A DNA stretch of 64,000 bases from Candidatus Multivoradales bacterium (GCA_965248925.1 CBDFLE010000005.1:640001-704000), one strand, 5' to 3'. Numbered from the stretch's first letter, positions 47,059 through 64,000 are shown. Notes: generated from the sequence alone by a model not told the origin. Made by a program: numbers and translations.

Positions 47059-47635
47059 ACCCTTCACCCAGTTGCTCGCCTGGTACAGCGCGGCCCAGGC
47101 CGACGAGAGCATTCGCTATCCGCATGCAGCTTGCCTGGCCACCGTCGACAGCCAAGGCCATTCCGATGCCCGCATTTTGCTGGTGCATCAACTAAGCGCC
47201 GACGGGTTCTTGTTTTCCACCGACAGCCGTTCACCCAAGGCCGAGCAGCTCGCGGGTCAGCCCCGAGCCGCGCTCACCTTCTACTGGGAATCGCAAGAGC
47301 GGCAGGTGCGAATTCGCGGTTTGGTGCATCCCGGAAGCGAGCGAGAAGCGGAGGAGTGCTTCGCAGAACGCCCTCGGGGCAGCCGAGTGACCGCCTGGGC
47401 CTCAACGCAGAGCGCCGGTCTCGACAACCGCGAGGATCTCGTACGAGGCTATAAAGAAAGCGCTGCTCGCTTTGGCTCCACCGACCCCATCCCATCTCCC
47501 CCAACCTGGTCCGCCTATCGCTTGCAAGCCAGCAGCATCGAGTTCTGGCAAGCTTCCCGCCACCGATTGCATCGGCGTGAGCTGTACCAGTTGAATCGTG
47601 CCGGAAGCTGGAAATGCAGCCTTTTGCAACCGTGA
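47048..47635 (+). CDS. pdxH: pyridoxine/pyridoxamine 5'-phosphate oxidase
   Basis: LATVD, SPKAEQL, RQVRIRG, RPRGS, IEFWQ..RLH and LQP. Confidence 0.85.
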   Translation: MAAEPFTQLLAWYSAAQADESIRYPHAACLATVDSQGHSDARILLVHQLSADGFLFSTDSRSPKAEQLAGQPRAALTFYWESQERQVRIRGLVHPGSEREAEECFAERPRGSRVTAWASTQSAGLDNREDLVRGYKESAARFGSTDPIPSPPTWSAYRLQASSIEFWQASRHRLHRRELYQLNRAGSWKCSLLQP

Positions 47636-47669: not shown

Positions 47670-47884
47670 CCGGCCAGCAATCGACAAACCCACGCCCCTT
47701 CCTTCACGTTTATCGGAAGAAAGACCGGCGCGCTATGCGCTTGGCCTTGGGCGAATTTCTCGCCGCATACCGTACGGCCGCGGAGAAACTTCGAAGTCGT
47801 GGAGCACCCCGAGGATTTCCCGAGAACTCCATCCCGCCAAGACCAGAATTCGTTGACACCACCACCCCTTCTGACTCTTCATAA
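47670..47884 (+). pseudogene. 3' remnant (about 70 codons) of a RAYT transposase gene
   Basis: 47670-47904 is collinear without indels with 61248-61482; it encodes GQQSTNP...RLALGEFLAAYRTAAEKLR..GFPENSIPP..SDSS*. Confidence 0.9.
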
Positions 47885-47885
47885 T

Positions 47886-47945
47886 GTGCCTGGCACCTAT
47901 TTCTGCAGCACCTATTTCTGCAGCGAATTGGCTGGCACCTATTCC
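47886..47945 (+). repeat. REP-like motif cluster (GTGCCTGGCACCTATTTCT)
   Basis: GTGCC-T-GGCAC palindrome at 47886, tandem gcacctatttctgca at 47893 and 47908, tggcacctattcc at 47933. Confidence 0.85.
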
Positions 47946-47951
47946 GGCACA

Positions 47952-48374
47952 TCAAGTCTCTAGTTCACATGTGACTGTTTCCGCGAAACACTTGATTGAG
48001 AGCCCGTTTTCAAAGCGAAAGATCATGTGATACGTCGAATCTGATTCTCTCTGGGTAAGGCATCCGTCCATTACATCTAGGTCATCTGGATGAAGAAAAC
48101 CCAGGAAAGCCACTGTTTCCGCGTCAGCAGAAATTTCCGCATCTGTCAGTAAATCTGTCTTTAACAGTTTGACGCTTGTGAAGCGTATCGATATTTTCTG
48201 TGCAAGCGACACTTCAGGCGGATGTTGCTTAGATAGTACCCACAACAAGACTGTACTGTTCGTAGTTGCATCATACCAGTAGGTCTCGAAATCGTAGTCG
48301 TTGTGCAGGTCTAGCCAGATTGATCCCATGCTAATCGCGTAGTTGTCTCCGATCTCGAAGTTTGACATTTTCAT
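47952..48374 (-). CDS. putative immunity protein for the orphan toxin tip
   Basis: Lower-GC 140-aa ORF whose start overlaps the stop of the toxin-tip frame at 48374. Confidence 0.7.
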   Translation of the reverse strand: MKMSNFEIGDNYAISMGSIWLDLHNDYDFETYWYDATTNSTVLLWVLSKQHPPEVSLAQKISIRFTSVKLLKTDLLTDAEISADAETVAFLGFLHPDDLDVMDGCLTQRESDSTYHMIFRFENGLSIKCFAETVTCELET

Positions 48375-48690
48375 TATTGCTCCCTTGATTTCAAGAGTCT
48401 GTCAACATTCCGCAAATCTGCACTCGTAGCTGGTCGTACCGGACCTACTTGGCTCCGGCTTCCAACTTGTCCCGCACGTGGTCCAGATGGGATAACGTTG
48501 TTTTGAAGAGTTGTTACATGGGGCGTATCAACTCCTCCGTGAGACCGGCCTCGGAGATCTATATTCACACGACCATTCGGGGTCTGAATTGAGACGCGGT
48601 TTCTTCCACCATTTCGAGTTACCAGATCTGAAGCCCGTTGCTCTATCGCTTGAGCTGTTCCTCCCTGGGAAAGGCTCTTCTTTGCCCGCT
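48374..48690 (-). pseudogene. orphan polymorphic toxin C-terminal tip, Ntox24-like (predicted RNase)
   Basis: Open frame read by hand: ...ASDLVTRNGGRNRVSIQTPNGRVNIDLRGRSHGGVDTPHV...ATSADLRNVDRLL; no Rhs core; its upstream edge falls at a REP-like motif. Confidence 0.7.
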
Positions 48691-48707
48691 TGGCACCTAT
48701 TTCTGCA
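48691..48707 (+). repeat. REP-like motif copy
   Basis: tggcacctatttctgca, identical to 47891-47907. Confidence 0.85.
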
Positions 48708-48742
48708 ACTATTCAGCGCCTATACTGGGTCGGGGCGGCAAC

Positions 48743-49117
48743 TCACGCTTTACGCTGATGAGGAAGTACGGTGGCCTTCCATGCCAGCCGAACCAAAGCG
48801 ACAATCACCGCCCAGCCTACAATGTTTGCTGAAAAGTAGAACACCATATGCAGCCAAAACCAGGTTCCCTCTGAATGAGCTACCCAATAGTAGGGCGTAA
48901 TACCGAAGATTTGCGGAAGATACTTCCCCGGAAGTCCCAAGAGCTGAAACTTGTGGAGCAGCGTCAAATAAGCGCCTTCAATGAGTGCGTCGTGGGTATA
49001 CGCCATCTCTATCAACGAGATTAGAAAGTGCTCTGCACAGCCAAGTATGATTCCCAGAGGCAGCACTCGCCGGAATTCGCAGATGAAGGAATTCAATGCT
49101 TTGTTCTCCTCGTGCAA
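48743..49117 (-). CDS. putative membrane immunity protein for Rhs-A
   Basis: Lower-GC hydrophobic ORF overlapping the Rhs-A stop codon. Confidence 0.55.
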   Translation of the reverse strand: MHEENKALNSFICEFRRVLPLGIILGCAEHFLISLIEMAYTHDALIEGAYLTLLHKFQLLGLPGKYLPQIFGITPYYWVAHSEGTWFWLHMVFYFSANIVGWAVIVALVRLAWKATVLPHQRKA

Positions 49118-52100
49118 CAGGGTCTAGCCAAGAGGTCACGATGCAGATTCTCGTAGCGCAGAGCGTCGGAGTTGGTGTTTGTCCCCCGTCTTGGCATATT
49201 GAAAAGGAAGTAGGCACTGGCATGACCAAACTCATGCACGAGTGCGGTGCCTGGGCTAACGGGAAAGGAGCCAGGCACGCCTTTGAAACGCCCTCTCGTG
49301 AATTCTCCTTCTACAAACGTCTTAGCGACCTGCTTGGGGTTGATGCGAATCAGAATATCGCCACTCCGCGGAGTACCAACCGGTGTTGAGAACGTAACGG
49401 CGCCGCCAAACTCAGAAAGATTATCGGAAGTGATGTCGACAATGACACCAGTCTCCGTGCCTATTGCCGCCCCAATCAGCGCTGCTGTCGGGTTCGAGGA
49501 TTCCGTGAAGAGATCGAGATCTCCTCCAGCGTTGATCTGGTACTCACCGTCGACCCCTGTGGCGACCAGGCTGCTAGCCAAGTTGGCTACTCCCGCCTCT
49601 CGGAGAGCCGTACGGAGAGCCTCCAACTCGGCTTGTACTTCGTTGATGCTGTCACCAACTGCAAAGATGATATTCCCGGTGGGATCAACGAACTTCAGTG
49701 GATTTCCGGCAGCGTACGTGTACCGATTCCATCGCCTGGGGTCGTGGCGAGCTTTATCTATAAGTGGAAGAGCATCCGCGCTCAAGAACCGCCCCACGAC
49801 CGGACTACAATGCCGAGCATGCATGTAGTCGAGGTCTCCGTTGGCCCCCACCCCATTCTCATCCCGTTCATGGCCGGTAAATTTCAGCTGAAACTCATCC
49901 GAGCTAGCGCTGGTCGCCTCCTGCCCAAACGGGTAGTAGCTGTGCAGCGCCACCTGGCTACCGCTCTTGGTCACCTGCCGCGGAGATCCAAGATGATCGA
50001 GATGGAAGCTGTAGGTCTCCTCCACACCGTTCGCGTCGGGGTCAACTGAAGCTAGCATCTGCCCACCCCGATAGACGTAGTCCCGCTCCCACTCGAAGCT
50101 TTCGCCCCGCGGATGGGTGAAGACCCGCAGCACCTCATTGCCGAGCCCGCGCAGGGTCCAGGTCTCGCTGGCGGGGCTGCTGACGCAGCTGCTGCCGGCG
50201 GCGCTGAAGCAGCTGAAGGTGACGATGCGCTCGTCATCAGCGTTGTAGATGTACACGCTCGCCTGGTCGGTGTTGCTTTGCAGGTGCTTCATCATGTTGG
50301 CGGCGTCGTAGGTGTACTGGTAGATCTCCGAGCTACTGTAACGCACGCGGGTCAGGTTGCCGCCAGCGTCGTACACCGTGCCGCTGAGGCCGAGGCGGTT
50401 GGTGCTGCTGCTCGGGCTCATGGTCTGGCTGGCGCCGTGGGTGACCATCTGGGTAAGGTTGCCGAAGTTGTCATAGCTCGCGGTCTGTAGGCGGTCGTTG
50501 CTGCCGACTTTTACCTCGCCGCTGACCAGGCGCTGGAATCGGTCATAGCGATATTGCAAGGAGCCGATGCGGTGGATATTTCCGGCTCCGTCGTAGTCGA
50601 AGGTGCCGGTGTCCCAGCCGGCGTTGGTAGAGATGCGCTCGGGCCGGGCGAGGCCGGAGGGATCGACCTGGTAGGTTTCGGTGATGCCGCTCTGGTGGCT
50701 GATCTGGGTCAGCATGCCGCCGCTCTGATAGCTGAGGCTGGAGGCGAAGCCGGGGACCGCGGTGAGGAAGCCCTTGTCGTAGGCGAAGCTCACCTGCCGC
50801 GGCGGGCTGACCTGGTCGCAGCTGTCGTTGCTGTGCAGGCAGTCGGGATAGTCGAGGGTCGCGAGGTTGCCTTGCAGGTCATAGGAGAACCCACTCTGGA
50901 AGGCGTAGTGGCCGACGCCGAGCTGATAGCGGGTCTGGCGCTCGGACATCCGGCCGCCACGACCCGCGTAGACGAAGCTCTCGGAGATTCGGACATCGAG
51001 GAAGCCAGGATTGGCGTTCAGCGGATTCACCAGATCCACCCAATTGTGGCGGGTGGTCTGCACCAGCTTGCCGGCCCGCTTGTCGGCACCGACGTTCTTG
51101 CGGCCGTAGCGGAACTCCTTGAGCTTGCGCGGCGAGCCACCGTTGCTCTCGTCAACTCGGATCAGGCGTCCGGCTGGATCGTAGAAGTAGTCGAGGTCGA
51201 ACTCGGTGGAGCCGCCGATGCGTTTGCTCAAAACGCTGCCACGAGCATCATAGGAATAGGTCGTGGCGCCGTTGCCCACTGGGCCGACTTCGGGATGGGT
51301 CTCGGAGGTCAGGAAGCTGCGACCGTCATAGTTGAAGAAGCGTTGCTGGCCACAGGTCGATCCAGTCCGATTCTGGCAAACGTGGGTGAGCCGCGAGCCG
51401 GCGTCGTAGGCGTAGCGAGTCAGCAAGCCGCCCGCGTTGCAGCTGCCATTCCAGGCCGCCGATCTGCCTTCACAAACCTCGAACAATCGGCCCTGGCCAT
51501 CGGAGATCTCGGTGTTGTAGGTGTCTTCTTGCACTCCGGAGGCGAGCATCACTTTGAACCGCCGCGTCTTGGTGCGTTCGCCCTCGTAGCTGAGGAATGT
51601 GGCCGGCTGGCTTGGTGGGGTGATCCTGCCGGGGCGGCCGAAGTTGTCGTACTGCTCGTACTTGGTGACGCGGCTGTCGGAAGTGGCGTTGAGGGTCCAC
51701 ACCGATTCCGCGGTCTTCCAGGCCCGTGGGTTGAAGCTCATGTGGCGGTACCAGCGCACTCCGCCGGGCAACTGCACCTGCTCTTTGACCCTACGGCCGA
51801 GGCCGTCGAAAGTGTGCTGGCGGTAGGCCAGCAGGCCGGAGCCCGAGCAGGCGGCGGTGGTGACGCACTGCTCTTCGGTCAGCAGCGGCATCAGGTTGAA
51901 GTTGCTCTGGGTGGCCAGCCGGTAGGTGTAGCGGCGCACCGCCTCGCTCTCGGGAAACTCGTGGGTCAAGCGGCCCTGCCGGTCATAGAGGAAGTCGATC
52001 TTGACCCCGGCGCTGTCTCGGCTGCGTTTGACCAGGCCGGTGTTCTTGTCGAGATCGTAGTCGGCCAGTTTGAGTAGCACTTCGCTGGTGGCGCAAGGGT

Positions 52101-54192
52101 TGACCACCGTCGAGTTTCTCAGCACGCCGTACTGGTAGCCGTAGTTGGTGCGGTAAAGGGCGCCGGATTGGGCCGGGTTGATGCTGCCCAGGCTTGCGGT
52201 GCTGATCGCCTGGCTGTCGCCGCCGTATTGCAGCTCAGAGGCGACGAAGCCGGTGCTGCCAGCCTGCACGAAGATGCTCAGCAGGTCGTTCGACTGCCGC
52301 GAGCCACCTGCCAACACCCTGCGTTTGCGCAGGAAGCCGTTGACTAGCGCAAAGTCATACTCGGTGGATTCGGTGACGCCGTTCTCGGTCACCGATTGCG
52401 AGTTGAAGGTCTCCAGCACCCAGGGCTGGGTCTGGCCGAACATGGCGAAATCGGTGGCCGGATCGATGGCGCCGGTGTCGCTGTTGGCGATCAGGTAGGA
52501 GCCGCGATTCTGGTTGTAGAAGGTCTCGCTCGCGCGCACGTTGCCGCTGGCGAAGTTGCCGCCGGTGGTGGTGGTGCGGAAATGGCCGAGGCCATCGAAG
52601 TCCGAGTGGGTGACCTCGCGGAACTTGTCGCCGTCGTCGTGGTAGATGACTTTGCGGTACTTCATCCGGTGGTTGCGGTCGGCGTAGGTCCCGGATGGAC
52701 CGTCGTTCTCATACTCCAGGAAGATCGAGCGGCGCTTGCTGCCGCTGGCCACCGAGCCCTGGTAGATCTCCTGCGACAAGTAGGGTGGGTTGTTGTTGAA
52801 GTAGTCGTTGGTGCCCGGCGTGCAGCGGGTGAAGGGCAGGCCGAAACCCTGGCGATGGATGCCCGCGGAGTTAAACCAGTGCTTTGTGTCGTTGCCTAGC
52901 GGGTCGGTCAAGGTGAGCGTGTGGTAGCAAGAGATCTGGCCGGGGCCGAGCACTCCCTGGGGGTCGTAATCGTAAGTCCAGGTGCCGTGGGGCGAGTTTG
53001 GATAGTCGCTGTCTTTGAGATAGGTCGACTTGGTGGCCACGCCGGTGCCGGTGTTGGCCCACTCGCGGCCCTCGGGCACATCTGGGCTTTGGGCGTGGAA
53101 ATCGATCTCTTGGTACTTCCAGCCAAAGGCACCATCGGTGGGCAGGCGGAGGAACTTGATGCCGCCCGAGAGTTTCTCTCCTACATTGTCGGTGTGGTAG
53201 TAGTCCATTTGGTAGAACGAGTCGTCGGGCAAGACCAGGCGTTCGAGCAGGCGGACGCCGGAAAGGGTGTCCCCTTCGGGCACACACGAAGGCTGCGCGC
53301 CTTGGCGCTCCAGGTCGACCGGGCCGGAGTAGACTAGATCGTAGACGGCGCTTTGGTTGTTGAAAGCGGCGAGGGTGACCTTCTCCAGTCGGCCGGCGGT
53401 GAAATCGAGGGAATGACTCCTGTTGGCGGAATCGGTGACGCTCCAATCGCCGCCCGAGGCGTAGGCTATCTTGACCCAATGGCCGAAGCGGTCGAGCATC
53501 TTGGTCACCCGCCAATCGAAGCTGGTGTGGCTGATGTTATGGAATTCATGCATCTCACCACTTGGGAATTCCACCGTCCGGCAATCCTGGTCGAGCAGAT
53601 TCGACGGCGTCTCGCAGGGGCTCGAGGCGAATGGGTAGTAGCGCATTCTCAGGTAGGTACTGTCGCGGGTGAACCAGGTGTTGGGCTGGGTGCCGGCGGG
53701 CGGGTAGGTGCCGCTCTGGGCCGGGTGGAGGAAATCGTGGAAGGCGTGTTGCCCGCCGTCAGGGCTCAAATAGGAAAACCCGCTGAAGGGTGGCGCGGGA
53801 TTGCCGCCTTCGGAGCGCACCAACTGGCCAAGATTGACCCGCCACCCCCAGCCAGAATTCGCATCGAGATCTTGAATCGGCAAGTTGTAGGAAACCAGCA
53901 TCTGGTTGGGCGGCGTGCCCTCGGTGCAGCTCTGTTGGTCGTCAAAGTCCCAGCCGCTGGAGTTGTAGGTCAGGGTGAAGCCGTAGCTCAGAGTGGGACC
54001 CACCGGGTAGCTCTGGCCGAGGGGCAGGCGGAGCGACAGATTCCCCGAGAAGAGGTTGATCGAATCGATGGCGCCGACTTGGAAGGCGGTGTCGGCGGTG
54101 ACGCCCCGCTGGTGGCTCTGGGGCTGTTGCGCGGCGGTCGGCCCGGCGAGGGCAACGTAGAGAAGTGAGGCGATGAGAATTTTCTGTTGCAT
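49093..54192 (-). CDS. Rhs/YD-repeat polymorphic toxin A with signal peptide and C-terminal zinc metallopeptidase-like tip
   Basis: Signal peptide, YD repeats, core DHLGS..YYPFG..KFTGHERD..GRFLS..NPLKFVDPTG, and tip with HEFGH...EN. Confidence 0.93.
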   Translation of the reverse strand: MQQKILIASLLYVALAGPTAAQQPQSHQRGVTADTAFQVGAIDSINLFSGNLSLRLPLGQSYPVGPTLSYGFTLTYNSSGWDFDDQQSCTEGTPPNQMLVSYNLPIQDLDANSGWGWRVNLGQLVRSEGGNPAPPFSGFSYLSPDGGQHAFHDFLHPAQSGTYPPAGTQPNTWFTRDSTYLRMRYYPFASSPCETPSNLLDQDCRTVEFPSGEMHEFHNISHTSFDWRVTKMLDRFGHWVKIAYASGGDWSVTDSANRSHSLDFTAGRLEKVTLAAFNNQSAVYDLVYSGPVDLERQGAQPSCVPEGDTLSGVRLLERLVLPDDSFYQMDYYHTDNVGEKLSGGIKFLRLPTDGAFGWKYQEIDFHAQSPDVPEGREWANTGTGVATKSTYLKDSDYPNSPHGTWTYDYDPQGVLGPGQISCYHTLTLTDPLGNDTKHWFNSAGIHRQGFGLPFTRCTPGTNDYFNNNPPYLSQEIYQGSVASGSKRRSIFLEYENDGPSGTYADRNHRMKYRKVIYHDDGDKFREVTHSDFDGLGHFRTTTTGGNFASGNVRASETFYNQNRGSYLIANSDTGAIDPATDFAMFGQTQPWVLETFNSQSVTENGVTESTEYDFALVNGFLRKRRVLAGGSRQSNDLLSIFVQAGSTGFVASELQYGGDSQAISTASLGSINPAQSGALYRTNYGYQYGVLRNSTVVNPCATSEVLLKLADYDLDKNTGLVKRSRDSAGVKIDFLYDRQGRLTHEFPESEAVRRYTYRLATQSNFNLMPLLTEEQCVTTAACSGSGLLAYRQHTFDGLGRRVKEQVQLPGGVRWYRHMSFNPRAWKTAESVWTLNATSDSRVTKYEQYDNFGRPGRITPPSQPATFLSYEGERTKTRRFKVMLASGVQEDTYNTEISDGQGRLFEVCEGRSAAWNGSCNAGGLLTRYAYDAGSRLTHVCQNRTGSTCGQQRFFNYDGRSFLTSETHPEVGPVGNGATTYSYDARGSVLSKRIGGSTEFDLDYFYDPAGRLIRVDESNGGSPRKLKEFRYGRKNVGADKRAGKLVQTTRHNWVDLVNPLNANPGFLDVRISESFVYAGRGGRMSERQTRYQLGVGHYAFQSGFSYDLQGNLATLDYPDCLHSNDSCDQVSPPRQVSFAYDKGFLTAVPGFASSLSYQSGGMLTQISHQSGITETYQVDPSGLARPERISTNAGWDTGTFDYDGAGNIHRIGSLQYRYDRFQRLVSGEVKVGSNDRLQTASYDNFGNLTQMVTHGASQTMSPSSSTNRLGLSGTVYDAGGNLTRVRYSSSEIYQYTYDAANMMKHLQSNTDQASVYIYNADDERIVTFSCFSAAGSSCVSSPASETWTLRGLGNEVLRVFTHPRGESFEWERDYVYRGGQMLASVDPDANGVEETYSFHLDHLGSPRQVTKSGSQVALHSYYPFGQEATSASSDEFQLKFTGHERDENGVGANGDLDYMHARHCSPVVGRFLSADALPLIDKARHDPRRWNRYTYAAGNPLKFVDPTGNIIFAVGDSINEVQAELEALRTALREAGVANLASSLVATGVDGEYQINAGGDLDLFTESSNPTAALIGAAIGTETGVIVDITSDNLSEFGGAVTFSTPVGTPRSGDILIRINPKQVAKTFVEGEFTRGRFKGVPGSFPVSPGTALVHEFGHASAYFLFNMPRRGTNTNSDALRYENLHRDLLARPCCTRRTKH

Positions 54193-54206
54193 AGTCTTGG
54201 ACTCCT

Positions 54207-54641
54207 TCAGCAGCCGCTGCCGGGGCAGGTGCTATCCCATTGATTGGCATTGCCAGACTCAAAGTTGTCGCCAAAGAGCACGGCGATGGACTTGACGGCG
54301 ACGGTGGCCGAGGTGCTGTGGTGGGTCTCGTCTTCGATGCGGTAGGTCAGGGTGCAGTTGGCATCGATCGAGGGGTTGGGGGTCAAGCGGATCAGATCGA
54401 GCACGATCTCGGTGCTCGCCGGGCAGGTGCTGGCGAGGACGGTGACAGTCAGGGCTTCGCCGTCGGGCTCGGTGTCGTTGGCCAGGACATCAATCAGGAT
54501 CGGGGCGGAGGCGGCTTCGGCGTTGTCGCCCGAGGCGATGGGGGTGCTGTTGCATTGAGCGTGGGCGGTGGCGGCGGCGACTGCGACTGCCAGTAGGCAG
54601 GCGGCGTTTAGGATCGAACATCTGGGGATTCTGTCTCTCAA
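54207..54641 (-). CDS. small secreted Ig/cadherin-like domain protein with C-terminal LFGDNFES motif
   Basis: Signal peptide, PIASGD..IDVLANDTEPDGEALTV..LTYRIED and LFGDNFESGNANQW; ends 14 bp before the Rhs-A start. Confidence 0.8.
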   Translation of the reverse strand: MRDRIPRCSILNAACLLAVAVAAATAHAQCNSTPIASGDNAEAASAPILIDVLANDTEPDGEALTVTVLASTCPASTEIVLDLIRLTPNPSIDANCTLTYRIEDETHHSTSATVAVKSIAVLFGDNFESGNANQWDSTCPGSGC

Positions 54642-54978
54642 GGCTACCTCACTTTCTGGAAGATTCTAGATTCGTTCTCTTGCTTGGACTGGCCCTAGGC
54701 CCACCAGGTTCCCGCTCGACTTTGTTTCGTCAAACAAGCTATGGGAAAAGATGTTAGAGACCAAACGGTTCATTTTGGCAGGCTGGAAATGAACCGTTTC
54801 CCCTCGATCCACTGAATGACAGAGATTGCACGCGAGGGAACTCCTTGTTTTCGATATTCTGATATTGTCTACATATATCAATGGTCAAAATCGCGGCGTG
54901 CATTCGATAGCCGCACATCCAATCCCGAGGTCATTCGGCGGGCACTGCTCGCGCAACTCGCAAAAGACCAATAAGCGC

Positions 54979-55488
54979 TCACTCCACCACGGCACTCCGC
55001 CCCCGCAACAGCACCACCACCCGAGCAGCACACCTCGCGAGATCGTCTCCGACCTCCAGCGACTCAATCCAGCCGCTCAGCCGTCGGCGTGCTTTTCCTG
55101 TCGGCCGGTGCGCCTGCTGCTCCCATCCCGAAATCGTCTCTGGTGCCACGTCGATGACCGTGGCGAGAGAGCGCTGCGAAAATCCGAGCCTGCGCCGCAA
55201 AGCCATCAGCAGCTCAGCCACATTCTCGGGCTCAGGGTTTGGATCGTAGCCAAGCCAGTCCGTGAGTGCCGGCCAAAACCGGACTTCCGGGTAGCCCCTG
55301 TCATGTTCCCAATTTACTATCGAACCCAGACAGACGCCGAGCGTTCGGGCAACGTCTTTCTGCAACTGACCACGATCAAGCCGACATCTCTTGATGTGGT
55401 TACCAATCGTAACAAGTTCTCGCGGATACCCCGCAATCTTGGGGATACGTCCTCTCAACTGGACATGGCAAAAGGGGGCCGCAATCAT
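54979..55488 (-). CDS. tandem XRE-family helix-turn-helix protein
   Basis: IGNHIKRCRLDRGQLQKDVARTLGV..IVNWE and LRRRLGFSQRSLATVIDV..ISGWE; start uncertain. Confidence 0.8.
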   Translation of the reverse strand: MIAAPFCHVQLRGRIPKIAGYPRELVTIGNHIKRCRLDRGQLQKDVARTLGVCLGSIVNWEHDRGYPEVRFWPALTDWLGYDPNPEPENVAELLMALRRRLGFSQRSLATVIDVAPETISGWEQQAHRPTGKARRRLSGWIESLEVGDDLARCAARVVVLLRGRSAVVE

Positions 55489-55970
55489 GCAAGTGCGGGC
55501 ATTTGGGGGACGATCGGCATCACTGCAAATGCTCGCCACAGATGATCGAGCGCTATCGCAGTCGGGTCTCAGGGCCGCTGCTCGACCGCATCGACATGCA
55601 TGTCGAGGTACCCGCGGTGAGCCTTGCCGAGTTGCGCAGCGAAGCCACCGAAGGGACTCGGGAAGTAGCGTGGAGAGTGCGCCAGGCGAGAGAGATCCAG
55701 CGCAGTAGATTCGGCTCCCAGACGGACCTGCCGGTCAATGCCTCCCTGGGGAGCGACGGCATCGAGCAGCATTGCGTGCTAGCGCCCGATGCCCAGCGCT
55801 TGGTCGACACCGCCTTCGACAAGCTCAAGCTGTCGGCACGGGCACTCAGCCGCATCCTCAAGCTATCCCGCACCATCGCCGACCTCGACAGTTCGGCGGA
55901 GATTCGGGCAGCGCATGCCGCCGAGGCCATTCAATACCGCAGCCTGGACCAGCGATCGGAGCGAGGCTGA
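55488..55970 (+). pseudogene. comM: 3' fragment of comM / YifB Mg-chelatase-like ATPase
   Basis: CKCGHLGD..CKCS..YRSRVSGPLLDRID, LSARALSRILKLSRTIADL and AEAIQYR; everything upstream of the NPCxCG position is missing. Confidence 0.9.
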
Positions 55971-56400
55971 TGCCACGTTTACCACGCTACTTGCCGCGTC
56001 CCGGCTGCTTGGTCGAGATCACCCAGCGGACTCTGCAAGGGCTCTACCTCCTACGACCGAGCCGGCGTCTCAATCAGCTTCTAATCGGAATTCTTGCCAA
56101 AGCCCAGCAAGAAACCGAGCTCGCCGTCCATGCGATCGCCGTCCTCTCAAATCACTTCCACCTACTCGCTTCACCGGCTGCCTATTCCGACGAAACTGAC
56201 CAGCCATTCCGATCGAAACCGACCACTTGTCGGAGCGAAGCGACGCTGGCGCTCTCCTCAGTTGTAAGTGTCCACTTTCGCTGTAGCTGGAGCCCTCCTT
56301 CCGGCTCTTCTTCTTGATTGATTGTATTCAAATAACCCGTCGTCGGGGCTGTGCGTAGCTGTGGGAAACGCAGGTTGGGGGGCAGGGGGGCGTTTTCCAA

Positions 56401-56437
56401 GCGGTTGTGGGAATCGCAGAGCGATTTCCACAACCGC
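56401..56437. other. 17-bp stem hairpin downstream of istB
   Basis: gcggttgtgggaatcgc-aga-gcgatttccacaaccgc, with one G-T pair. Confidence 0.7.
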
Positions 56438-57299
56438 GGCAGCTTCCACAGTCCATCTTGGGTCGGGTCCGGATCGGGCCGCAGGCCCGCTGATGGGTCA
56501 GGATCGGCGATCGCTTCAGCATGCTCTTGGATCTCACCTTGCCTCTCGCTGGGCGGCCTTGCGAATACCGCCGGCTCTCTTCGCCCGCATGGAGTCACCG
56601 TCCACCGCGAGCTTGTAGGCGCCGTGGACAATGCGATCGAGGATGGCGTCGGCCAAGGTCGGATCGCCGATGACCTCGTACCAGCTCTCAACCGGTAGCT
56701 GGGAGGTCACCAGCGTGGAGCGGTTGCCGTAGCGGTCCTCAAGAATCTCGAGCAGGTCGCGCCGCTCGCTGGCCCCGATCGGCGCCAGCCCCCAGTCGTC
56801 GAGGATGAGCAGGTCTGTGCGAGCATAGCTCTTGAGCAGCTTCTCGTAGCTACCATCACCCCGCGCGATGGCGAGCTGGCGAAACAGCCTCGGCACCCGC
56901 AGGTACAAAGCGGTGTAACCCTCCCGACATGCCTTGTGCGCGAAGGCGCAGGCGAGAAAGGTCTTGCCCACCCCGGCCTTGCCGGTGATCAGCACGTTGA
57001 GATGCTCGGCGATCCACTGGCACGAGGCCAGGCGCAGGATCTGGCCTTTGTCCAGGCCCCTCTTGGCTCGCCAGTCGATGTCTTCGATGGCCGCCTGCTC
57101 GCGCAGCTTGGCTTTTCGCAACCGCGCTATCAAGCGGCGGCTGGATCGCTCGGTCGCTTCGCGCTCGACCAGCAGCCCGAGGCGCTCTTCGAAGGAGAGC
57201 TCTGAGACATCGACCATCGACAGCTGCTCCTCAAAGGCTTTGGCCATACCGTGGAGCTTCGGAATGTGTCAATGAAAGTGAGACACTTTCTTCTGGGAA

Positions 57300-58421
57300 T
57301 TAGTACGGAATCGGTAGTGGCTCCGGCACCATCGCTTTCAGCGAGGGCGCGCAGCCAGGGGTCTCGCCTGGTGCGTCGTTGTGTACGCGGTGTGTCACTA
57401 CGTTCTCGGTATCGACTGGGTCAGTGCTGGCGGCGGTGGTCGGCGGGTTGATCCAGACCTTGTCACTGGGCTCCGGCAAAGCCGGCGCTCGCCGCTTGAA
57501 GCGGCTTGGATGAGCGGCTGAGGCGGCGGCGAGGACTTCTCGACGTTGCTCCAGTACTGAGGCCGTGAGGCCGTAGTGGACGGTCTCTGGCGTCAACAAG
57601 CCGAGTCCTGTGTGGTAGTGCTGCGTGTTGTACCAGCCGATGAACGAGCGGCAGAATGCTCGTGCATCTTCCAGTGATCCGAAGCGGTCGGGAAAGCTCG
57701 GATGGTACTTGAGCGTCTTGAACTGGGCCTCAGAGAACGGATTGTCGTTGCTCGTGTAGGGCCGGTTCAGCGACCGTGTCATCCCGAGATCGGCCAGCAG
57801 TAGAGCCACTGGCTTGGATGTCATGCTCGAACCGCGGTCCGAGTGCAAGGTAAGTCGATCTCGCTCAACACCTTGCTTCTCAACACTGTCGGCGATCAAC
57901 CGCTTCGCGAGCCCTCCGGACTCGCGGCAGGCGAGCATCCAGCCGACGATGTAGCGGCTGAAGACGTCCAGAATTACGTAAAGGTAGTAGTGGGTCCACT
58001 TCACCGGGCCCTTGAGCTTGGTGATGTCCCACGACCACACCTCGTTCGGCCCTGTGGCCAGCAGTTCGGGCTTGGTGTAGTTGGGATGACGCCGCTGACG
58101 GCGTCGCTCGCGCAGCTCGCCCTCAGACTCCAGGACCCGGTACATGGTGCGCACCGAGCAGATATGGCGCTGATCCTCGTCCAGCAGCGCCGCCCAGACT
58201 TGACGCGGCGAGCGGTCGACGAAGCGCTCCGAGTGCAACACATCGAGGACCTCCTGGCGTTCAGCGGGCGTCAATGCCAGCGGCGGTCGAGGCCGCGTTG
58301 ATAGCTGCGGCCCTGCGCTCTGCTGCCGACGGCGGCGATAGAAAGTGGCTCTGGGGACCGCCAAGGCGACGCAGGCTGCTTGCACCCCCACCGTCTCGGC
58401 CAGCGGCGCCACAGCGCTCAT
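57300..58421 (-). CDS. IS3 transposase OrfB (DDE)
   Basis: WSWDIT, LDVFSRY, HSDRGS, DNPFSEAQFKTLKY and WYN..H. Confidence 0.93.
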   Translation of the reverse strand: MSAVAPLAETVGVQAACVALAVPRATFYRRRRQQSAGPQLSTRPRPPLALTPAERQEVLDVLHSERFVDRSPRQVWAALLDEDQRHICSVRTMYRVLESEGELRERRRQRRHPNYTKPELLATGPNEVWSWDITKLKGPVKWTHYYLYVILDVFSRYIVGWMLACRESGGLAKRLIADSVEKQGVERDRLTLHSDRGSSMTSKPVALLLADLGMTRSLNRPYTSNDNPFSEAQFKTLKYHPSFPDRFGSLEDARAFCRSFIGWYNTQHYHTGLGLLTPETVHYGLTASVLEQRREVLAAASAAHPSRFKRRAPALPEPSDKVWINPPTTAASTDPVDTENVVTHRVHNDAPGETPGCAPSLKAMVPEPLPIPY

Positions 58422-58882
58422 GGCTGGCTCTCGCTCGGCTCGATCCCTAGCAGCCGGGAAAGTTTTTTTTGGACATCGATGATCGTCTCGGCTTTGTACA
58501 GCTGATGCTTGAGCCGGGCATTCTCACGCTCAAGCTCCGCGACGCGGCGGGCCTCGGCAGAGACCGGTCGACGCTTGCGACCGCGCTTCTTCGACAGACC
58601 GGCCAGAGCTCCCGTGTCGCGCTGACGGCGCCACGTCGACAGTAGCGAGGAATACAGACCCTCCTGGCGAAGCAGGGCGCCAATCTCGCCGGGCTTGCTA
58701 CAGGCGTCGGCGGCCTGGACGATGCGCAGCTTGTACGACGCGCTGTACCGCCGCCGCTTCGCCTTCTCAGCTACCTCGGGATCTGGTCGGTCAGCACCCA
58801 TATCTCGCAGCTCGTGGCTTGGACTCGCCATGGTGATTGCTCTCCACACCCTCACTAATTTCTCGGTACTTGAGTGTCTCAC
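58418..58882 (-). CDS. IS3 transposase OrfA
   Basis: RRRYSASYKLRIV..LLRQEGLYSS..WR and VQKK; A8 slippery tract at 58463-58470 suggests a -1 frameshift. Confidence 0.88.
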   Translation of the reverse strand: MRHSSTEKLVRVWRAITMASPSHELRDMGADRPDPEVAEKAKRRRYSASYKLRIVQAADACSKPGEIGALLRQEGLYSSLLSTWRRQRDTGALAGLSKKRGRKRRPVSAEARRVAELERENARLKHQLYKAETIIDVQKKLSRLLGIEPSESQP

Positions 58883-58935
58883 TTACATTGGCACAGAGGG
58901 CTTGAGCGCGGCGAGTTGATCGAGCGTCGCGTGCC

Positions 58936-60510
58936 TCAGCATGGCGGCGTCTCCTCGCGGCGCGCGGCACTGTAGTAGCTGGCGCCGCGGACGTTGCGGT
59001 GCTCGATCGGCGCCGTCACTTCGGTGGGCTCGGGCGCTGCTTGCTGGTCCAGGCCGCTCTTCAGGATCGACTTCACGCTCTTGTAGGACAGGCCGTGAAT
59101 GGCGAGCGCGCGGCGGCACGCAGCCTCCAAACGATTGGCACCATAGGTCTTGCCCAGGCGCATCAGCCCCAGACACGAGCGAAAGCCGTGCTGAGGATGG
59201 GAGCGGTTAAGCATGATGGTCTCCACCAGTTCGGCCGTCGCCTGGCCTGTTTTCGCCGCCCAGCTGATCAGCCGTGTCGGTGTCCACTCCAGGTACGCCT
59301 GGTGCGCTTTGGGCATGTGCTCGCTCTGGGTCGTGTGCCGACCCCGACACCGATTGCGACGATGAGCAGCCACACGCTTGCCGCGATCGAGCACCTCCAC
59401 CAGTTGCGCCGTCGCCCGCAGATCGAGCTGCTTCTTGATCAGCTGGTACGGCACACTGTAATAGTGGCCCTCGAACTCGACGTGGTAGTCCGGGGCAACG
59501 CGTACCTTCTTCCATTCGGCAAGCTCGTAGGGCTGGAGCGGCAAAGCACCCAGAGCAGGACGATCGACCTGCTCGAACAGCGCTCGGCGCGAGACGCCCA
59601 ACACCTTCAGCGGACGGTCGTTAAGCTCGACCAGAAGCTTCGCGATGCTCTCGTTGAGCTCTCGCAGGCTGAAGAACTGCTGGTTACGCAGCCGGGCCAG
59701 AATCCAGCGCTCCACTTGCAATACACCGTTTTCGACCTTCGCCTTGTCTTGGGGCTTCCTCACCCGCGCCGGCACCACCGCCACGCCGTAGTGCTCGGCC
59801 AACTCCGCGTAGGTGCGATTGATCTCCGGCTCGTAGCGGCACGGGCTGGTCACGCCGCTCTTCAGATTGTCCGGCACCACCAGCTCGCTCACCCCGCCCA
59901 GAGCCGCGAAGGTCCGCACATGAGAGCCGAGCCAGTCCTCCAGGCCCTGGCTCCACGTTGCCTCGGCATAGGTGTAGTTGCTCGCCCCCAGCACCGCCAC
60001 GAAGATCTGCGCTTCGCGCTCTTTGCCAGTCGCCGGGTCGATCACCCTCACGGTCTGTCCGGCGTAGTCGACGAACAGCTTCTCGCCCGCCCGGTAGGCT
60101 TGGCGCAGGCACACATCCAGGCGACCTTCCCAGATCCGGTACAGCTGACAGAAGCGGCTGAAACCGTAGCCGTCGGGATGGTCCTCCCGGTACTCTTGCC
60201 ACAGCAGCGACAGGGTTACGCCCTTCTTCTTCAGCTCGCCATGCACCTTGGTCCAGTCGGGCAAGGCTCGCTGACCACCCCTCCGAAGCGGCTGCGGCCG
60301 AGGGTACAGGCGTTGCTCCAGCTCAGCGTCGCTCAAAGCTGCTACTTGCTCCCAGCTCAGGCCTTCAACCTTGGCTCGCAGCAGGTAGTTGCACACCGTC
60401 ACGTGGCCCAGCCGAACCGACCGTCCGATCTGGCGGTGCGACAGGCCATGCTGCCATTTCAGTCTCAGTACCTCGCGTATCTTGCGCATCGATGTCCTCA
60501 CTCTCGGCAT
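58936..60510 (-). CDS. istA: IS21 transposase IstA
   Basis: MRKIREVLRL, LFVDYAG, LGASNYTYAEA, VPDNLKSGV and KPQDKAKVE. Confidence 0.95.
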   Translation of the reverse strand: MPRVRTSMRKIREVLRLKWQHGLSHRQIGRSVRLGHVTVCNYLLRAKVEGLSWEQVAALSDAELEQRLYPRPQPLRRGGQRALPDWTKVHGELKKKGVTLSLLWQEYREDHPDGYGFSRFCQLYRIWEGRLDVCLRQAYRAGEKLFVDYAGQTVRVIDPATGKEREAQIFVAVLGASNYTYAEATWSQGLEDWLGSHVRTFAALGGVSELVVPDNLKSGVTSPCRYEPEINRTYAELAEHYGVAVVPARVRKPQDKAKVENGVLQVERWILARLRNQQFFSLRELNESIAKLLVELNDRPLKVLGVSRRALFEQVDRPALGALPLQPYELAEWKKVRVAPDYHVEFEGHYYSVPYQLIKKQLDLRATAQLVEVLDRGKRVAAHRRNRCRGRHTTQSEHMPKAHQAYLEWTPTRLISWAAKTGQATAELVETIMLNRSHPQHGFRSCLGLMRLGKTYGANRLEAACRRALAIHGLSYKSVKSILKSGLDQQAAPEPTEVTAPIEHRNVRGASYYSAARREETPPC

Positions 60511-61451
60511 CCAATCCTCCTTTCAAGGAGGCTGGAATACCCCAATTGTGAGGAGCGCGCTACCGTCGAACTCCGCCGTGGCCAGGATTCCGATCCAATC
60601 TGACCACCCATTCCGATCGACCCGGAAAAGTGGTCACTTTCGATCGGAATCGATGGTCAGATTCCGTTGGAATCACTGGTCACTTTCAATCGGAATCGGT
60701 GGTCGGTTTCCGTCGGTGCAGGCACCGGCCACCGTCGAACAGATTGCGCGATTTATGGGACACCTCAAGACCAACATAGCCAAAGAAATAGGTCGTCTCC
60801 ACGACTGGCCCGGCTCGATGTTCGACCGGCGCTACACCATGATTCCGGTCAGCGACGAAGAGGAAGCTCAGATCAAGCGCCTCGAGTACCTCCTCTCTCA
60901 AGGCTGCAAAGAAGGGCTCGTGACGTCACCCCTCGAGTGGCCGGGAGCCCACTGCGCAGGAGCGCTCCTGACGGGCTATCCGCTGAGGGGAATCTGGATC
61001 GACCGCACTCGGCAATGGGCGGCGAGCCAGCGCGAGGCCGACACCGGGGAATCCGACTTCGTAACCGACGTCGAGCTAAAGCTCGACAACCTGCCATGTT
61101 GGAAGCATCTTGCGCTAGAAGCCCAGCAGCAACACATCTTGGAGCTCATCGAGAAGATCGAGAGAGATACTGCAAGACTCCATCAAGACCGAGGAACCGA
61201 GCCCCTCGGCGCATTCCTCGTCGGCCAGCAGCAGACACATCGACGCCCCGGCCAGCAACCGACAAACCCACCCCCCTTCTTTCACGTCTATCGGAAGAAA
61301 GTCCGGCACGCGATGCGCTTGGCCTTGGGCGAATTCCTCACTGCATACCGTACGGCCGCAGAGAAACTTCGAAGCCGTGGAGCACCTAGCGGATTTCCTG
61401 AAAACTCCTTCCCGCCAAGACCAAAATTCGTTGACACCAACACCCCTTCTG

Positions 61452-61513
61452 ACTCTTCATAATGTGCCTGGCACCTATTTCTACTCTTCATAATGTGCCT
61501 GGCACCTATTTCT
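61452..61513 (+). repeat. 31-bp perfect tandem duplication containing the RAYT stop codon and REP-like motif
   Basis: actcttcataatgtgcctggcacctatttct at 61452-61482 and 61483-61513; partial gcctggcacc at 61631. Confidence 0.9.
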
Positions 61514-61649
61514 GGCCGGCGGCTTCTCGACAGGTTTCGGGCACTGGAGGGCTTCGAGGCAGAGGATCTGCCTGCGCTATCTACTTCCCAAGCACACGTA
61601 AGCCGGACCGAAGCTGGGCTGCTACGAAACGCCTGGCACCCGGTAGGCG

Positions 61650-61775
61650 GACCAACGATGTCGACTCAGTTGTGCCGCGTGGTCTGCACCAGCTTGCCGG
61701 CACCGACGTTCTGGCGACCGTAGCGAAACTCCCTCTGCCGCTGTTGAGTGCCCCCGTTGTGCTCGGCGACCCGCC
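61650..61775 (-). pseudogene. degenerate internal Rhs core fragment
   Basis: RVAEHNGG..EFRYGRQNVGA-GKLVQTTRHN*VDIV matches Rhs-A at about 51030-51160, with a 12-bp deletion and Trp changed to TGA. Confidence 0.8.
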
Positions 61776-61825
61776 ACCAGAGAACATAAGGTGCTCTGGC
61801 AGTCTTGCGGTCGGAAGAAACCGTG

Positions 61826-62320
61826 TTATGACTCTGTCTTGAGCCAGCTCTTCTCTTCGTCAGCAAGTTGTCCGACATTCAGGGCCGACCGGTGTACTCG
61901 CCGTAGTGACGCGGCAGCTTCATCAACAGACTCTTCTTCAGCCACACATCGAGCAAGACCTTGCGAAGACGACGTTAGACGCTCTCGATTGAGAGAAACC
62001 GCCTTTTTAAAATAGAACATACCCTTTTTGGAATCGTCTTCGACAGAATGGTAAAACCATCCTAACTCCTCCAATACCAGAGAGTTACTCGGTTCGAATT
62101 CAAGAGCCTTGTGGAGCAGGGCCTTTGCGCACTCAAGAGAGAAGCGACTATTCTCAGACCCAAGCTGTATCGCTCTACTAAAGGATAAAAGGTCGATAGC
62201 CTGCAAGCAATGCGCCTTGTCGGCGACTGACAATATCTCTGCCGCGTCATCAAAGCAGCCTTCCAACATGAGCTTCGAAACTTCCTGCCTTTGGCATTCC
62301 CCAAATGTGCGTACACTCAT
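61826..62320 (-). CDS. TPR-like putative immunity protein for Rhs-B
   Basis: Lower-GC ORF starting just after the Rhs-B stop; ALEFEPSNSLVLEELGWFY TPR-like helix pair. Confidence 0.7.
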   Translation of the reverse strand: MSVRTFGECQRQEVSKLMLEGCFDDAAEILSVADKAHCLQAIDLLSFSRAIQLGSENSRFSLECAKALLHKALEFEPSNSLVLEELGWFYHSVEDDSKKGMFYFKKAVSLNRERLTSSSQGLARCVAEEESVDEAAASLRRVHRSALNVGQLADEEKSWLKTES

Positions 62321-62324
62321 TGGT

Positions 62325-64000
62325 TCACCCTTGCCCACCAGTTCCTTGGTTTCTGAGTTTGTCAATCAGTCGTCTTGAGTTGTCGGCCAGTTTCTTCATT
62401 TGCTTTGCAGCGTGCGCCGCGGGGCCCTTTCCGCGAGACATCTTGGAGATCGTATTGTAGGTCTCATTCGCCAAGTTTGAGTGGTACGATTTGGATCGCT
62501 TGAGCTTTCCGCTGATCAGATCTCCGATTTTTCGATTGCCAAACCCACCGGGGCCTACGGGCATCATGCCTATTTTGCAAACTCCGGCATCGACACAATC
62601 CATGAAGTTTCCGCCCTGTGGTAATCTAAAGGATTCCAGGATCAACGCCGTAAAACTTTTCTTTGTTCCCTCTGAGGAGGTCCCTGCCGTGACTTGTAAA
62701 TCGCGATCTGAAGGAATGGATGTGGAATCCGTCGAACTCTCTTGTGAAAACTCACTGATCACATCGATAGATGATGAAAAACAGAGCCCTAGCAAACAAG
62801 GGTCAATAATAAATGCAAATCCGTCAAGCGGTGTTGCCCCAGAAGGATCATTGAAGAGAAGGGGACGATTGTTAACATAAGAAACACGATTCCACGAGCG
62901 GGATTGCGGGATGGGAGTACCGTCGGTAGCCGGATCTACACTCAAGAACCGCCCCACCACCGGACTGCAATGCCGAGCATGCATGTAGTCAAGCTCACTC
63001 TTCGCCCCCACGCCGTTCTTGTCTCGCTCATGCCCGGTAAACTTCAGCTGAAACTCATCCGAGCTAGCACTGGTTGCCTCCTGCCCAAACGGATAGTAAC
63101 TGTGCTGCGCCACTTGGGTGCCATTCTTCGTCACCTGCCGTGGTGTACCGAGATGATCTAGATGAAAGCTGTAAGTCTCTTCGACACCACTGGCGTCCGG
63201 GTCTACCGAGGCTAGGAGCTGTCCACCCCGGTAGACGTAGTCCCGCTCCCACTCGAAGCTTTCGCCCCGCGGATGGGTGAAGACCCGCAGCACCTCGTTG
63301 CCGAGCCCGCGCAAGGTCCAGGTCTCGCTGGCGGGGCTGCTGACGCAGCTGCTGCCGGCGGCGCTGAAGCAGCTGAAGGTGACGATGCGCTCGTCATCAG
63401 CGTTGTAGATGTACACGCTCGCCTGATCTGTGTTGCTTTGCAGGTGTTTCATCATGTTGGCGGCGTCGTAGGTGTACTGGTAGATCTCCGAGCTACTGTA
63501 ACGCACGCGGGTCAGGTTGCCCCCAGCATCGTACACCGTGCCGCTCAAGCCGAGGCGATTGGTGCTGCTGCTCGGGCTCATGCTCTGGCTGGCGCCGTTG
63601 GTGATCATCTGGGTGAGATTGCCGAAGTTGTCATATGACGCGGTTTGCAGGCGGTCGCTACTTCCCACCTTGGCCTCGCCGCTGACCAGCCGCTGCAAAC
63701 GATCATAGCGGTAGGTCAGCGAGCCGATGCGGTGAATATTGCCCGATCCGTCGTAGTCGAAGGTGCCAGTGTCCCAGCCGGCGTTGGTGGAGATGCGCTC
63801 GGGCCGGGCGAGGCCGGAGGGATCGACCTGGCGAGTTTCGGTGATGCCGCTCTGGTGGCTGATCTGGGTCAGCATGCCGCCGCTCTGGTAGCTGAGGCTG
63901 GAGGCGAAGCCGGGCACCGCGGTGAGGAAGCCTTTGTCGTAAGCGAAGCTCACCTGCCGCGGTGGGCTGACCTGGTCGCAGCTGTCGTTGGTGTGCAGAC
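62325..64000 (-). CDS. Rhs polymorphic toxin B (5' part beyond the window) with unrecognised basic C-terminal tip
   Basis: 62941-64000 is collinear with Rhs-A 49781-50840; NRPLLFNDPSG core end, then an unrelated tip. Confidence 0.92.
   Translation of the reverse strand, partial: LHTNDSCDQVSPPRQVSFAYDKGFLTAVPGFASSLSYQSGGMLTQISHQSGITETRQVDPSGLARPERISTNAGWDTGTFDYDGSGNIHRIGSLTYRYDRLQRLVSGEAKVGSSDRLQTASYDNFGNLTQMITNGASQSMSPSSSTNRLGLSGTVYDAGGNLTRVRYSSSEIYQYTYDAANMMKHLQSNTDQASVYIYNADDERIVTFSCFSAAGSSCVSSPASETWTLRGLGNEVLRVFTHPRGESFEWERDYVYRGGQLLASVDPDASGVEETYSFHLDHLGTPRQVTKNGTQVAQHSYYPFGQEATSASSDEFQLKFTGHERDKNGVGAKSELDYMHARHCSPVVGRFLSVDPATDGTPIPQSRSWNRVSYVNNRPLLFNDPSGATPLDGFAFIIDPCLLGLCFSSSIDVISEFSQESSTDSTSIPSDRDLQVTAGTSSEGTKKSFTALILESFRLPQGGNFMDCVDAGVCKIGMMPVGPGGFGNRKIGDLISGKLKRSKSYHSNLANETYNTISKMSRGKGPAAHAAKQMKKLADNSRRLIDKLRNQGTGGQG

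Follow-up and report, generated by a model that had tools for sequence, protein, structure and literature searches.

The DNA considered here, a 64,000-nt stretch of the genome of Candidatus Multivoradales bacterium (genome G000, C5:640001-704000; hereafter the window, with coordinates without a prefix being window positions), carries genes of Rhs polymorphic toxins, a gene for a Y1/HUH nuclease resembling the RAYT transposases, and copies of a short motif, ATAAK-GTGCC-T-GGCAC-CTNTT, located directly 3' of the nuclease gene. Our analysis suggests that the motif is probably the terminal sequence of a widespread family of Y1 transposase elements, dispersed over the genome, and that its link to the Rhs genes is mostly hitch-hiking in duplicated DNA rather than the work of a dedicated cassette system. 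The core of the motif, the 11-nt palindrome GTGCC-T-GGCAC, is the cognate end of the Y1 family and a local hot spot of rearrangement, and its association with Rhs comes mainly from the duplication of a block and from Rhs flanks acting as sinks for mobile DNA. The Rhs-specific, integron-like cassette system envisaged in an earlier note on this DNA finds no support: the motif is scattered over the genome, homologous loci in other genomes rarely lie near Rhs genes, and insertion sequences (IS) used as controls behave alike.

The Y1/HUH family and its terminal repeats

The Y1 gene of the window is interrupted at 56178/60723 by a 4.5-kb element of the IS21 family, and the copy to its left is a 3' remnant only. 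Intact copies are found at C5:709130 and C6:3632714, and the protein analyses were carried out for the former, a 313-aa paralogue (P0002, C5:709130-710068) located about 5 kb past the right end of the window. Pfam assigned it to Y1_Tnp (30.7 bits, cut-off 23), and its scores for the NCBIfam models of RAYT (NF047646, REP_Tyr_transpos, 45.2 bits) and IS200 (NF033573, 14.5 bits) were below the respective cut-offs of 80 and 55. The HUH and Y-x3-Q motifs align to those of ISDra2 TnpA, residues H62, H64 and Y123 do not vary among 30 homologues, and conservation extends to the C-terminal half of the protein. For the AlphaFold (AF2) model (pLDDT 86) the best fold match in PDB was E. coli TnpAREP with its REP (repetitive extragenic palindrome) hairpin (4er8_A, TM score 0.73), followed by the transposases of IS608 and ISDra2. 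The previous assignment of the gene to RAYT-like Y1/HUH nucleases is therefore right as far as the fold and the motifs are concerned. The family is multi-copy, with 21 matches in G000; of 41 related genomes, 35 have matches, one of them (G011) as many as 55. Its named homologues come from metagenome-assembled genomes of Acidobacteriota (Thermoanaerobaculia, Holophagales), where they are annotated as "transposase" or "RayT". Homologous loci in other genomes were sought with an alignment (A1), a query with a single protein having found nothing.

The relationship between gene and motif emerges from the ends of other members of the family. A paralogue with 37% identity is present in G000 in five copies of about 1.4 kb, which have the ends GTGCCACCC...GGGTGGCAC (also written as GTGCCACCCAAGTCG...CGAGGTGGGTGGCAC) and local tandem duplications across the two junctions. 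Other genomes supplied 67 copies with full flanks; GGTGCC occurs within 220 nt upstream in 31 of them and GGCACC 180-400 nt downstream in 46, and the consensus of the ends is (R)A-GGTGCCASCCGATT on one side and AATCGGSTGGCACC-TNTT on the other, with mirrored outer flanks. Elements of the Y1 family carry 14-bp terminal inverted repeats (TIRs), GGTGCCASCCGATT...AATCGGSTGGCACC, and, given this consensus and the mirrored flanks, ATAAK-GTGCC-T-GGCAC-CTNTT would correspond to the outermost parts of two element ends placed side by side, in a minimal "solo" element or in a joint. The claim that the motif is cognate to the Y1 gene is borne out in this sense, by the five copies as well as by the 67. In the window copy and its near-identical paralogues, the stop codon of the comM fragment overlaps the ATG of the Y1 gene and a core is found on the 3' side only.

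Within the window, a 235-nt repeat (47670-47904 and 61248-61482, 91% identical) ends in the 19-mer GTGCCTGGCACCTATTTCT, which is found exactly at 47886, 61464 and 61495 and with three mismatches at 48686; the four copies are on the + strand, and 100 shuffles gave no match. Right-half copies, (G)GCACCTATT..., are present at 47908 and 47933, and no motif copy occurs in the first 47 kb, with up to three mismatches allowed or as exact sub-motifs. These repeat and motif searches agree with much of what the earlier note had described: the 3' end of a Y1 gene followed by the motif, twice, locally duplicated and convergent with Rhs genes; the absence of the motif from the first 47 kb; and its position at cassette edges, in that the copies mark rearrangement breakpoints, including the edges of toxin/immunity regions. 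Six of the seven copies listed there hold, two of them being real but one base off (61465 and 61496 for 61464 and 61495), whereas the seventh, a "partial" copy at 61631, belongs to a different repeat. The latter has four copies with a terminator-like hairpin (...AAGCCCGACCAAAGCCGGGCTGCTACGAAACG...), at 61570-61640 in the window and at C5:965545, C5:1245987 and C6:1750049, and in two of them it lies directly 3' of a GGCACC element end.

Repeated Rhs blocks around the Y1 gene

The region appears to be the left portion of an array in which three Rhs blocks stand in tandem. Every conserved block would consist of an Rhs core with its N-terminus, an HTH gene, a truncated comM, the 313-aa Y1/HUH gene and then the motif as its end, and the DNA between the blocks would hold unique toxin tips, candidate immunity genes and orphan remnants. 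The features are as follows (20 open reading frames, ORFs, across 45.8-64 kb of the window were scanned with Pfam):

47670-47884, + strand: 3' remnant of the Y1/HUH RAYT-like gene (about residues 244-313), 86% aa identity to the intact copy
47886-47951, + strand: solo core ATAAT-GTGCCTGGCAC-CTATTTCTGCA, then right-half duplicates GCACCTATTTCTGCA and TGGCACCTATTCCGGCAC
47952-48374, - strand: ORF of 140 aa without a family, positional candidate for the immunity gene of the orphan cassette
48374-48700, - strand: 5'-truncated orphan toxin fragment (Pfam Ntox24, 26.9 bits, profile positions 45-78 of 91)
48691-48707, + strand: right half of the core with flank, TGGCACCTATTTCTGCA, a 17-nt direct repeat of 47891-47907
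48743-49117, - strand: ORF of 124 aa without a family, positional candidate for the immunity gene of Rhs1
49093-54192, - strand: Rhs1 (1699 aa), core and N-terminal part 97.8% identical to Rhs2 and Rhs3, C-terminal tip unique
54207-54641, - strand: ORF with a bacterial Ig domain (Big_9), directly upstream of Rhs1, inside the repeated block
54979-55539, - strand: XRE-type HTH gene, inside the repeated block
55413-55970, + strand: 5'-truncated fragment of comM/yifB (Mg-chelatase-like ATPase), its stop overlapping the ATG of the Y1 gene
55970-56178, + strand: 5' part of the Y1/HUH gene, residues 1-70, with the HUH motif NHFHLL
56179-60722, - strand: IS21-family element of 4.5 kb with a 7-bp target duplication (IstA 58936-60510, IstB 56534-57247)
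about 57256-58899: IS3-type element nested in the IS21-family element, between IstA and IstB
60723-61462, + strand: 3' part of the Y1/HUH gene, with the catalytic Tyr in LEYLLSQG
61464-61513, + strand: two full units CTCTTCATAAT-GTGCCTGGCAC-CTATTTCT, a 31-nt tandem duplication
61647-61773, - strand: orphan Rhs-core fragment, 74-80% identical to 51021-51159
61826-62365, - strand: ORF of 179 aa without a significant family match, positional candidate for the immunity gene of Rhs2
62325-64000, - strand: 3' part of Rhs2, which runs past the window to about C5:707352

The locus combines an RHS core, a variable tip, a small downstream ORF and a truncated toxin remnant, as an Rhs polymorphic toxin locus with orphan tips does; the RHS_repeat scores of the Rhs genes in the window are 68 and 36 bits, and the identity between blocks stops at the Rhs tip. 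No Pfam match, even at E 0.1, was obtained for the three Rhs tips or for two of the small ORFs downstream, and the small ORFs beside the tips are candidate immunity genes by position only. The Y1 remnant at 47670 forms the left edge of the block array, directly 3' of a pyridoxamine-phosphate oxidase gene (47030-47635). On a larger scale, GC skew on C5 flips from + to - near 750 kb, which places the Rhs array about 50-100 kb from the probable replication terminus.

The blocks are very similar to each other: window 49781-56178 is 97.8% identical to C5:702941-709338 over 6,398 nt, the Rhs1 block is 97.8% identical to the third block over 4,911 nt, and the stretch of HTH gene, truncated comM and Y1 gene is 99.6-99.7% identical among its copies. 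A full-length comM exists at one place only (C5:1437500-1438297), where it is followed by the Y1 gene and, further downstream, by an Rhs fragment, and we regard this locus (C5:1437500-1443520) as the probable ancestral site at which comM-Y1 and Rhs sequences became juxtaposed. The Rhs link could then be traced to this one juxtaposition of comM-Y1 with an Rhs fragment, amplified by duplication and by recombination among Rhs paralogues. Since the Rhs-linked copies look like descendants of a single event, the layout that the earlier note had seen twice is present but does not amount to independent evidence, both copies lying inside tandem Rhs blocks with 97.8% identity. At the putative ancestral locus, the full comM/yifB precedes the Y1 gene, which a 1.27-kb IS4/IS5-like element interrupts close to the 3' end; a core comes next, then the 2.8-kb Rhs fragment and three further core units. 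In another genus (G011:C21:104300-108208), a Y1 gene with 51% identity starts directly after the comM/yifB stop codon; the comM-Y1 arrangement there may be an orthologous, fixed pair, although tblastn with the comM fragment gave no apparent match in the 79 homologous loci from other genomes.

Sequencing data, which comprised four runs of one sample in the form of contigs, yielded joints that match paralogous copies: 47904>62410 equals the junction at C5:1440545, 52094>61486 the junction at C5:1443390, 56171>60723 the uninterrupted Y1 copies, and 57255>58900 IS21 copies without the nested IS. Because each joint corresponds to a paralogous copy, they carry no signal on polymorphism of the cassettes or the array.

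Arrays of the core in the genome and their proximity to Rhs

The exact 11-mer has 70 copies at 31 places in G000, of which approximately ten are singletons without the flanking signature, i.e. at chance level (control palindromes gave 0-47 copies). With the WAAK signature the core has 55 copies in 21 arrays of 1-7 cores each, and the reversed control with signature has none; ten of 40 relatives hold 1-7 signature cores, and G011, with its 55 protein matches, has two cores. Eight of the 21 arrays are located within 3 kb of an Rhs-like tblastn match, a zone that makes up 5.8% of the genome. However, five of these eight are copies of one junction (the Y1 3' end), and the array at C5:1443400 is not independent either, because it shares the CTTCATAA flank with that junction. 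IS21 (IstA) and IS3-type elements, used as controls, fall within the same distance in 6 of 24 and 5 of 29 cases (about a quarter and a sixth), so the proximity of cores to Rhs is no greater than that of these unrelated elements. Rhs neighbourhoods in G000 gather mobile DNA of all kinds. Ten of the 21 Y1-family matches lie within 5 kb of Rhs-like sequence, six of them being the copies in the repeated Rhs blocks, and at only three of the 79 homologous loci from other genomes is Rhs found within 10 kb; a general linkage of RAYT homologues with Rhs loci, one of the predictions made for this DNA, is not seen.

The same is true for the predicted enrichment of the motif at boundaries of Rhs tips and immunity genes, as 13 of the 21 arrays are far from Rhs and their scanned flanks hold mostly ordinary genes. 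The flank scan covered 20 flanking or enclosed ORFs at nine non-Rhs array loci (the arrays C6:1089097, C6:1090013, C5:1072672 and C6:4648499 were left out) and assigned 14 of them to Pfam families: DUF2071, FAD oxidase, MeaB, LPG synthase, a halogenase-like FAD enzyme, EF-G, two PIN-domain proteins, HTH_18, FGE-sulfatase, TPR, MacB/FtsX, M16 peptidase and DUF6249. None of these 14 families is Rhs or a polymorphic toxin. The two PIN-domain genes, of the toxin-antitoxin type, enclose a seven-core array (C6:2177223-2177488), the only non-Rhs array with toxin-like genes among the scanned flanks. A core without the ATAAK signature (C5:2057623 and C5:2058655) lies with a local duplication (GGCACCGCAGATCGCG, twice) inside an open frame of 1813 aa and was copied by a 1,032-bp tandem duplication of that frame. 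The strand of the cores shows no consistent bias relative to GC skew (six loci on + and four on - in the negative-skew halves). Two series of Rhs matches, seven at C5:921625-974204 and three at C6:3503453-3519128, correspond to the end of the Rhs core only (Rhs1 residues 1408-1512); they are spaced by 7.5-12 kb, each series stands beside a full Rhs gene, and both may represent large orphan tip modules arranged in arrays.

Within its arrays the core does not vary, while locus-specific flanks of about 8-12 nt are duplicated along with it. Nine of 13 left partial cores stop at GTGCC (eight running straight into the flank, one keeping the central T), three stop about a base earlier and one is a point-mutated full core; 16 of 23 right partial cores start at GCAC (eight of them at GGCAC), two at GGTAC and one at CCAC, the remainder being a mutated full core and three unrelated sequences. 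The clustering of duplication breakpoints at the centre of the palindrome is real. Cores also bracket larger segments, such as 2.0 kb at C6:2382503/2384542 (an ORF of 397 aa without a family and with low GC3, i.e. GC content at third codon positions; flanks identical over 12+7 nt) and 1.5 kb at C6:4371956/4373538 (a TPR-repeat gene; flanks identical over 10+8 nt). Two adjacent cores pair well (-10.1 kcal/mol, z -4.7), and CT is present at the centre of the core and, in most arrays, again directly after GGCAC-C. TnpAREP is described to cut single-stranded DNA at a CT beside a palindrome, forming a 5'-phosphotyrosine link from which the end can be transferred to an unrelated 3'-OH (PMC8266576). 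We infer that the Y1 enzyme could nick single-stranded DNA at C^T in the palindrome centre, and perhaps also at the CT just 3' of it, and that strand transfer or error-prone repair at a stalled fork could then produce half-core junctions, tandem units and occasional larger rearrangements. Such nicking would account for the coincidence of the motif with block borders and with the ends of some truncated Rhs fragments.

Several observations weigh against hitch-hiking as the whole explanation. Of the 15 Y1 matches that are not part of the repeated blocks, four, at three loci, have an Rhs gene within 5 kb and are all convergent with it. In each of the five copies the conserved block ends no more than about 10 nt past the core, and four different continuations follow; since random borders would not all end at the core, the latter would have helped to shape the variable regions. 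At C5:1443386 and C6:4648492 the end of an Rhs fragment is 7-14 nt away from a core, the orphan cassette of the window is bracketed by the 17-nt repeats 47891-47907 and 48691-48707, and the 2.8-kb Rhs fragment C5:1440546-1443390 (96.2% identical to Rhs2) is bracketed by CTTCATAAK-core-CTATTTC units. As regards the element itself, the window Y1 copy lacks a left end, the fold of a single core is weak (-2.4 kcal/mol, z -0.6), and a solo core can be read either as abutted ends or as an insertion target. A more active process is conceivable, in which the Y1 enzyme cuts the central C^T and transfers the 5' end to a nearby 3'-OH, generating tandem micro-duplications and sometimes kb-sized core-bracketed DNA (as with the Rhs tip fragment, the orphan toxin/immunity pair of the window, the TPR gene and the family-less ORF), and in Rhs loci sets the distal border of the toxin/immunity region with faster cassette turnover as a result; we consider this version unlikely. 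If true, it would represent an HUH-driven process of local capture and duplication.

A still stronger version, in which the Y1 enzyme and its motif would be dedicated to the capture and shuffling of Rhs toxin/immunity cassettes in the manner of an integron, appears very unlikely. It would account for the motif at the distal border of every variable tip region in the five block copies, for the brackets around the orphan cassette (47952-48700) and the Rhs fragment, and for the excess of arrays near Rhs-like sequence, but the latter consists mostly of copies of one junction, IS21 and IS3 are equally close to Rhs, core-bracketed segments include a non-toxin TPR gene and a family-less ORF, the window copy of the Y1 gene is broken, and scans of 45.8-64 kb of the window revealed no integrase, attI-like or attC-like part. 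The opposite view, that the motif has no role in Rhs evolution and that the first duplicated segment ended there by chance, to be followed by homologous exchange and decay, is possible but improbable. Homologous recombination between the Y1 stretch and the Rhs core of blocks that are 97-99.7% identical can swap whole variable regions, and Rhs neighbourhoods collect all sorts of mobile DNA; this view leaves aside, however, the four different sequences that follow the core, the independent Rhs truncations that abut cores, and the breakpoints at the palindrome centre in unrelated loci.

About equally unlikely, in our opinion, is the possibility that GTGCC-T-GGCAC with its ATAAK/CTNTT flanks is a dispersed REP-like target, into whose centre Y1 elements insert, so that their true ends would be ASCCGATT...AATCGGST and solo cores would be empty sites. 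Full elements indeed have GTGCC on one side and GGCAC on the other with outer flanks mirrored as in solo cores, and the inside of GGTGCCA varies by subfamily while the outer part is invariant. On the other hand, two of the five-copy elements share a flank of about 8 nt beyond GTGCC and GGCAC, which suggests that the moved unit extends outward, and the 55 solo cores of G000 far exceed those of Y1-rich relatives such as G011. Finally, a regulatory site such as a sigma-54-type promoter (TGGCAC-N5-TTGC) or a terminator is hardly credible. The motif contains TGGCAC and many arrays lie between convergent genes, yet the motif of the window points away from any co-oriented gene, a T run is missing from the weak hairpin, and the duplications and element ends would be left unexplained. 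In the sigma-54 consensus GG and GC are spaced by 12; the promoter was rejected on this spacing, which is 13 in the window copies and 10 in others.

Comparison with known elements

E. coli Rhs elements with H-rpt/ISAs1 contain displaced orphan tips and resident insertion sequences. The loci described here share with them a conserved core, a variable tip with a small ORF, truncated orphan toxins and downstream transposase genes, but here the resident transposase is a Y1/HUH enzyme, and the block border falls on its end motif. The resemblance to integrons is in layout only, a series of small cassettes whose edges carry a repeated short site: there is no tyrosine-recombinase integrase, attI, attC or common promoter, the cassettes are usual Rhs tip or orphan units, and the only recombination-type enzymes among the 20 ORFs scanned in 45.8-64 kb are DDE transposases and the Y1 gene. 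Among the matches listed in literature searches of article text without supplements, none links RAYT with Rhs (one treats both, unlinked), and the 11-mer appears, by title, only in human and mouse contexts.

The closest known kinds are TIRtrons with their TIRYT enzymes and REPtrons with RAYTs, and the organisation fits the former. TIRtrons consist of a RAYT-like Y1 gene between TIRs, copies of which are dispersed as single, dimeric or clustered units; a sharply defined group from Acidobacteria has been noted among TIRYTs, and most described TIRs share GGGGWSAS, others being unrelated to it (Di Nocera et al. 2013, PMC3733652, in the parts covered here). Likewise, the present family has a RAYT-like gene flanked by TIRs (five G000 copies with both ends) and dispersed cores, one to seven per array. 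Its TIR, GGTGCCASCCGATT, differs from GGGGWSAS, which still allows membership given the unrelated TIRs reported in those parts of the paper. Further differences are that the window copy lacks a left TIR and stands beside a solo palindrome, and that the protein has 313 aa with a conserved C-terminal half; breakpoints at the palindrome centre and kb-sized bracketed segments are not mentioned for TIRtrons in the same parts of PMC3733652.

REPs, according to the portions of the literature covered, are palindromes of 20-50 nt with GTAG 5' of them and hundreds of copies (Corneloup et al. 2021, PMC8266576), and a RAYT typically occurs once per genome (Bertels et al. 2017). The similarity to this system lies in the fold, for which E. 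coli TnpAREP is the best match, in a gene-linked short palindrome dispersed between genes, often in tandem clusters, and in the CT at the inferred break, as in the TnpAREP cleavage sites described there. In contrast to REPs as portrayed in these sources, the palindrome has only 11 nt, folds weakly, lacks GTAG and has 55 signature copies rather than hundreds; the gene is multi-copy (21 here, up to 55) instead of single-copy, it has the core on its 3' side only where REPs flank the gene on both sides, and its score (45.2 bits) is under the RAYT model cut-off of 80. IS200/IS605 elements, in the sections of PMC6006769 covered, have transposases of about 150 aa and subterminal hairpins and no TIRs. 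They share the Y1 HUH fold and the Y-x3-Q tyrosine motif with the family described here, which differs in its 313-aa protein, its TIRs and its NF033573 score of 14.5 bits (cut-off 55). When the combination of NHFH, Y-x3-Q and 313 aa was compared by eye with Table 1 of PMC6006769, no row matched. The family can be described as RAYT-like in fold and TIRtron-like in organisation.

An integron built by a Y1 enzyme would, if true, be a new route to the assembly of toxin arsenals; the evidence indicates that the Rhs link is mostly hitch-hiking. What the data reveal is an apparently undescribed signature of a TIR-bearing Y1 family in Acidobacteriota, the ends of which shrink to an 11-nt palindrome whose surroundings are repeatedly duplicated, with breaks at its centre. 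This provides a concrete candidate cleavage site for TIRYTs, HUH enzymes without characterised substrates in the literature covered here, and the core arrays may offer a view of how these enzymes reshape neighbouring DNA.

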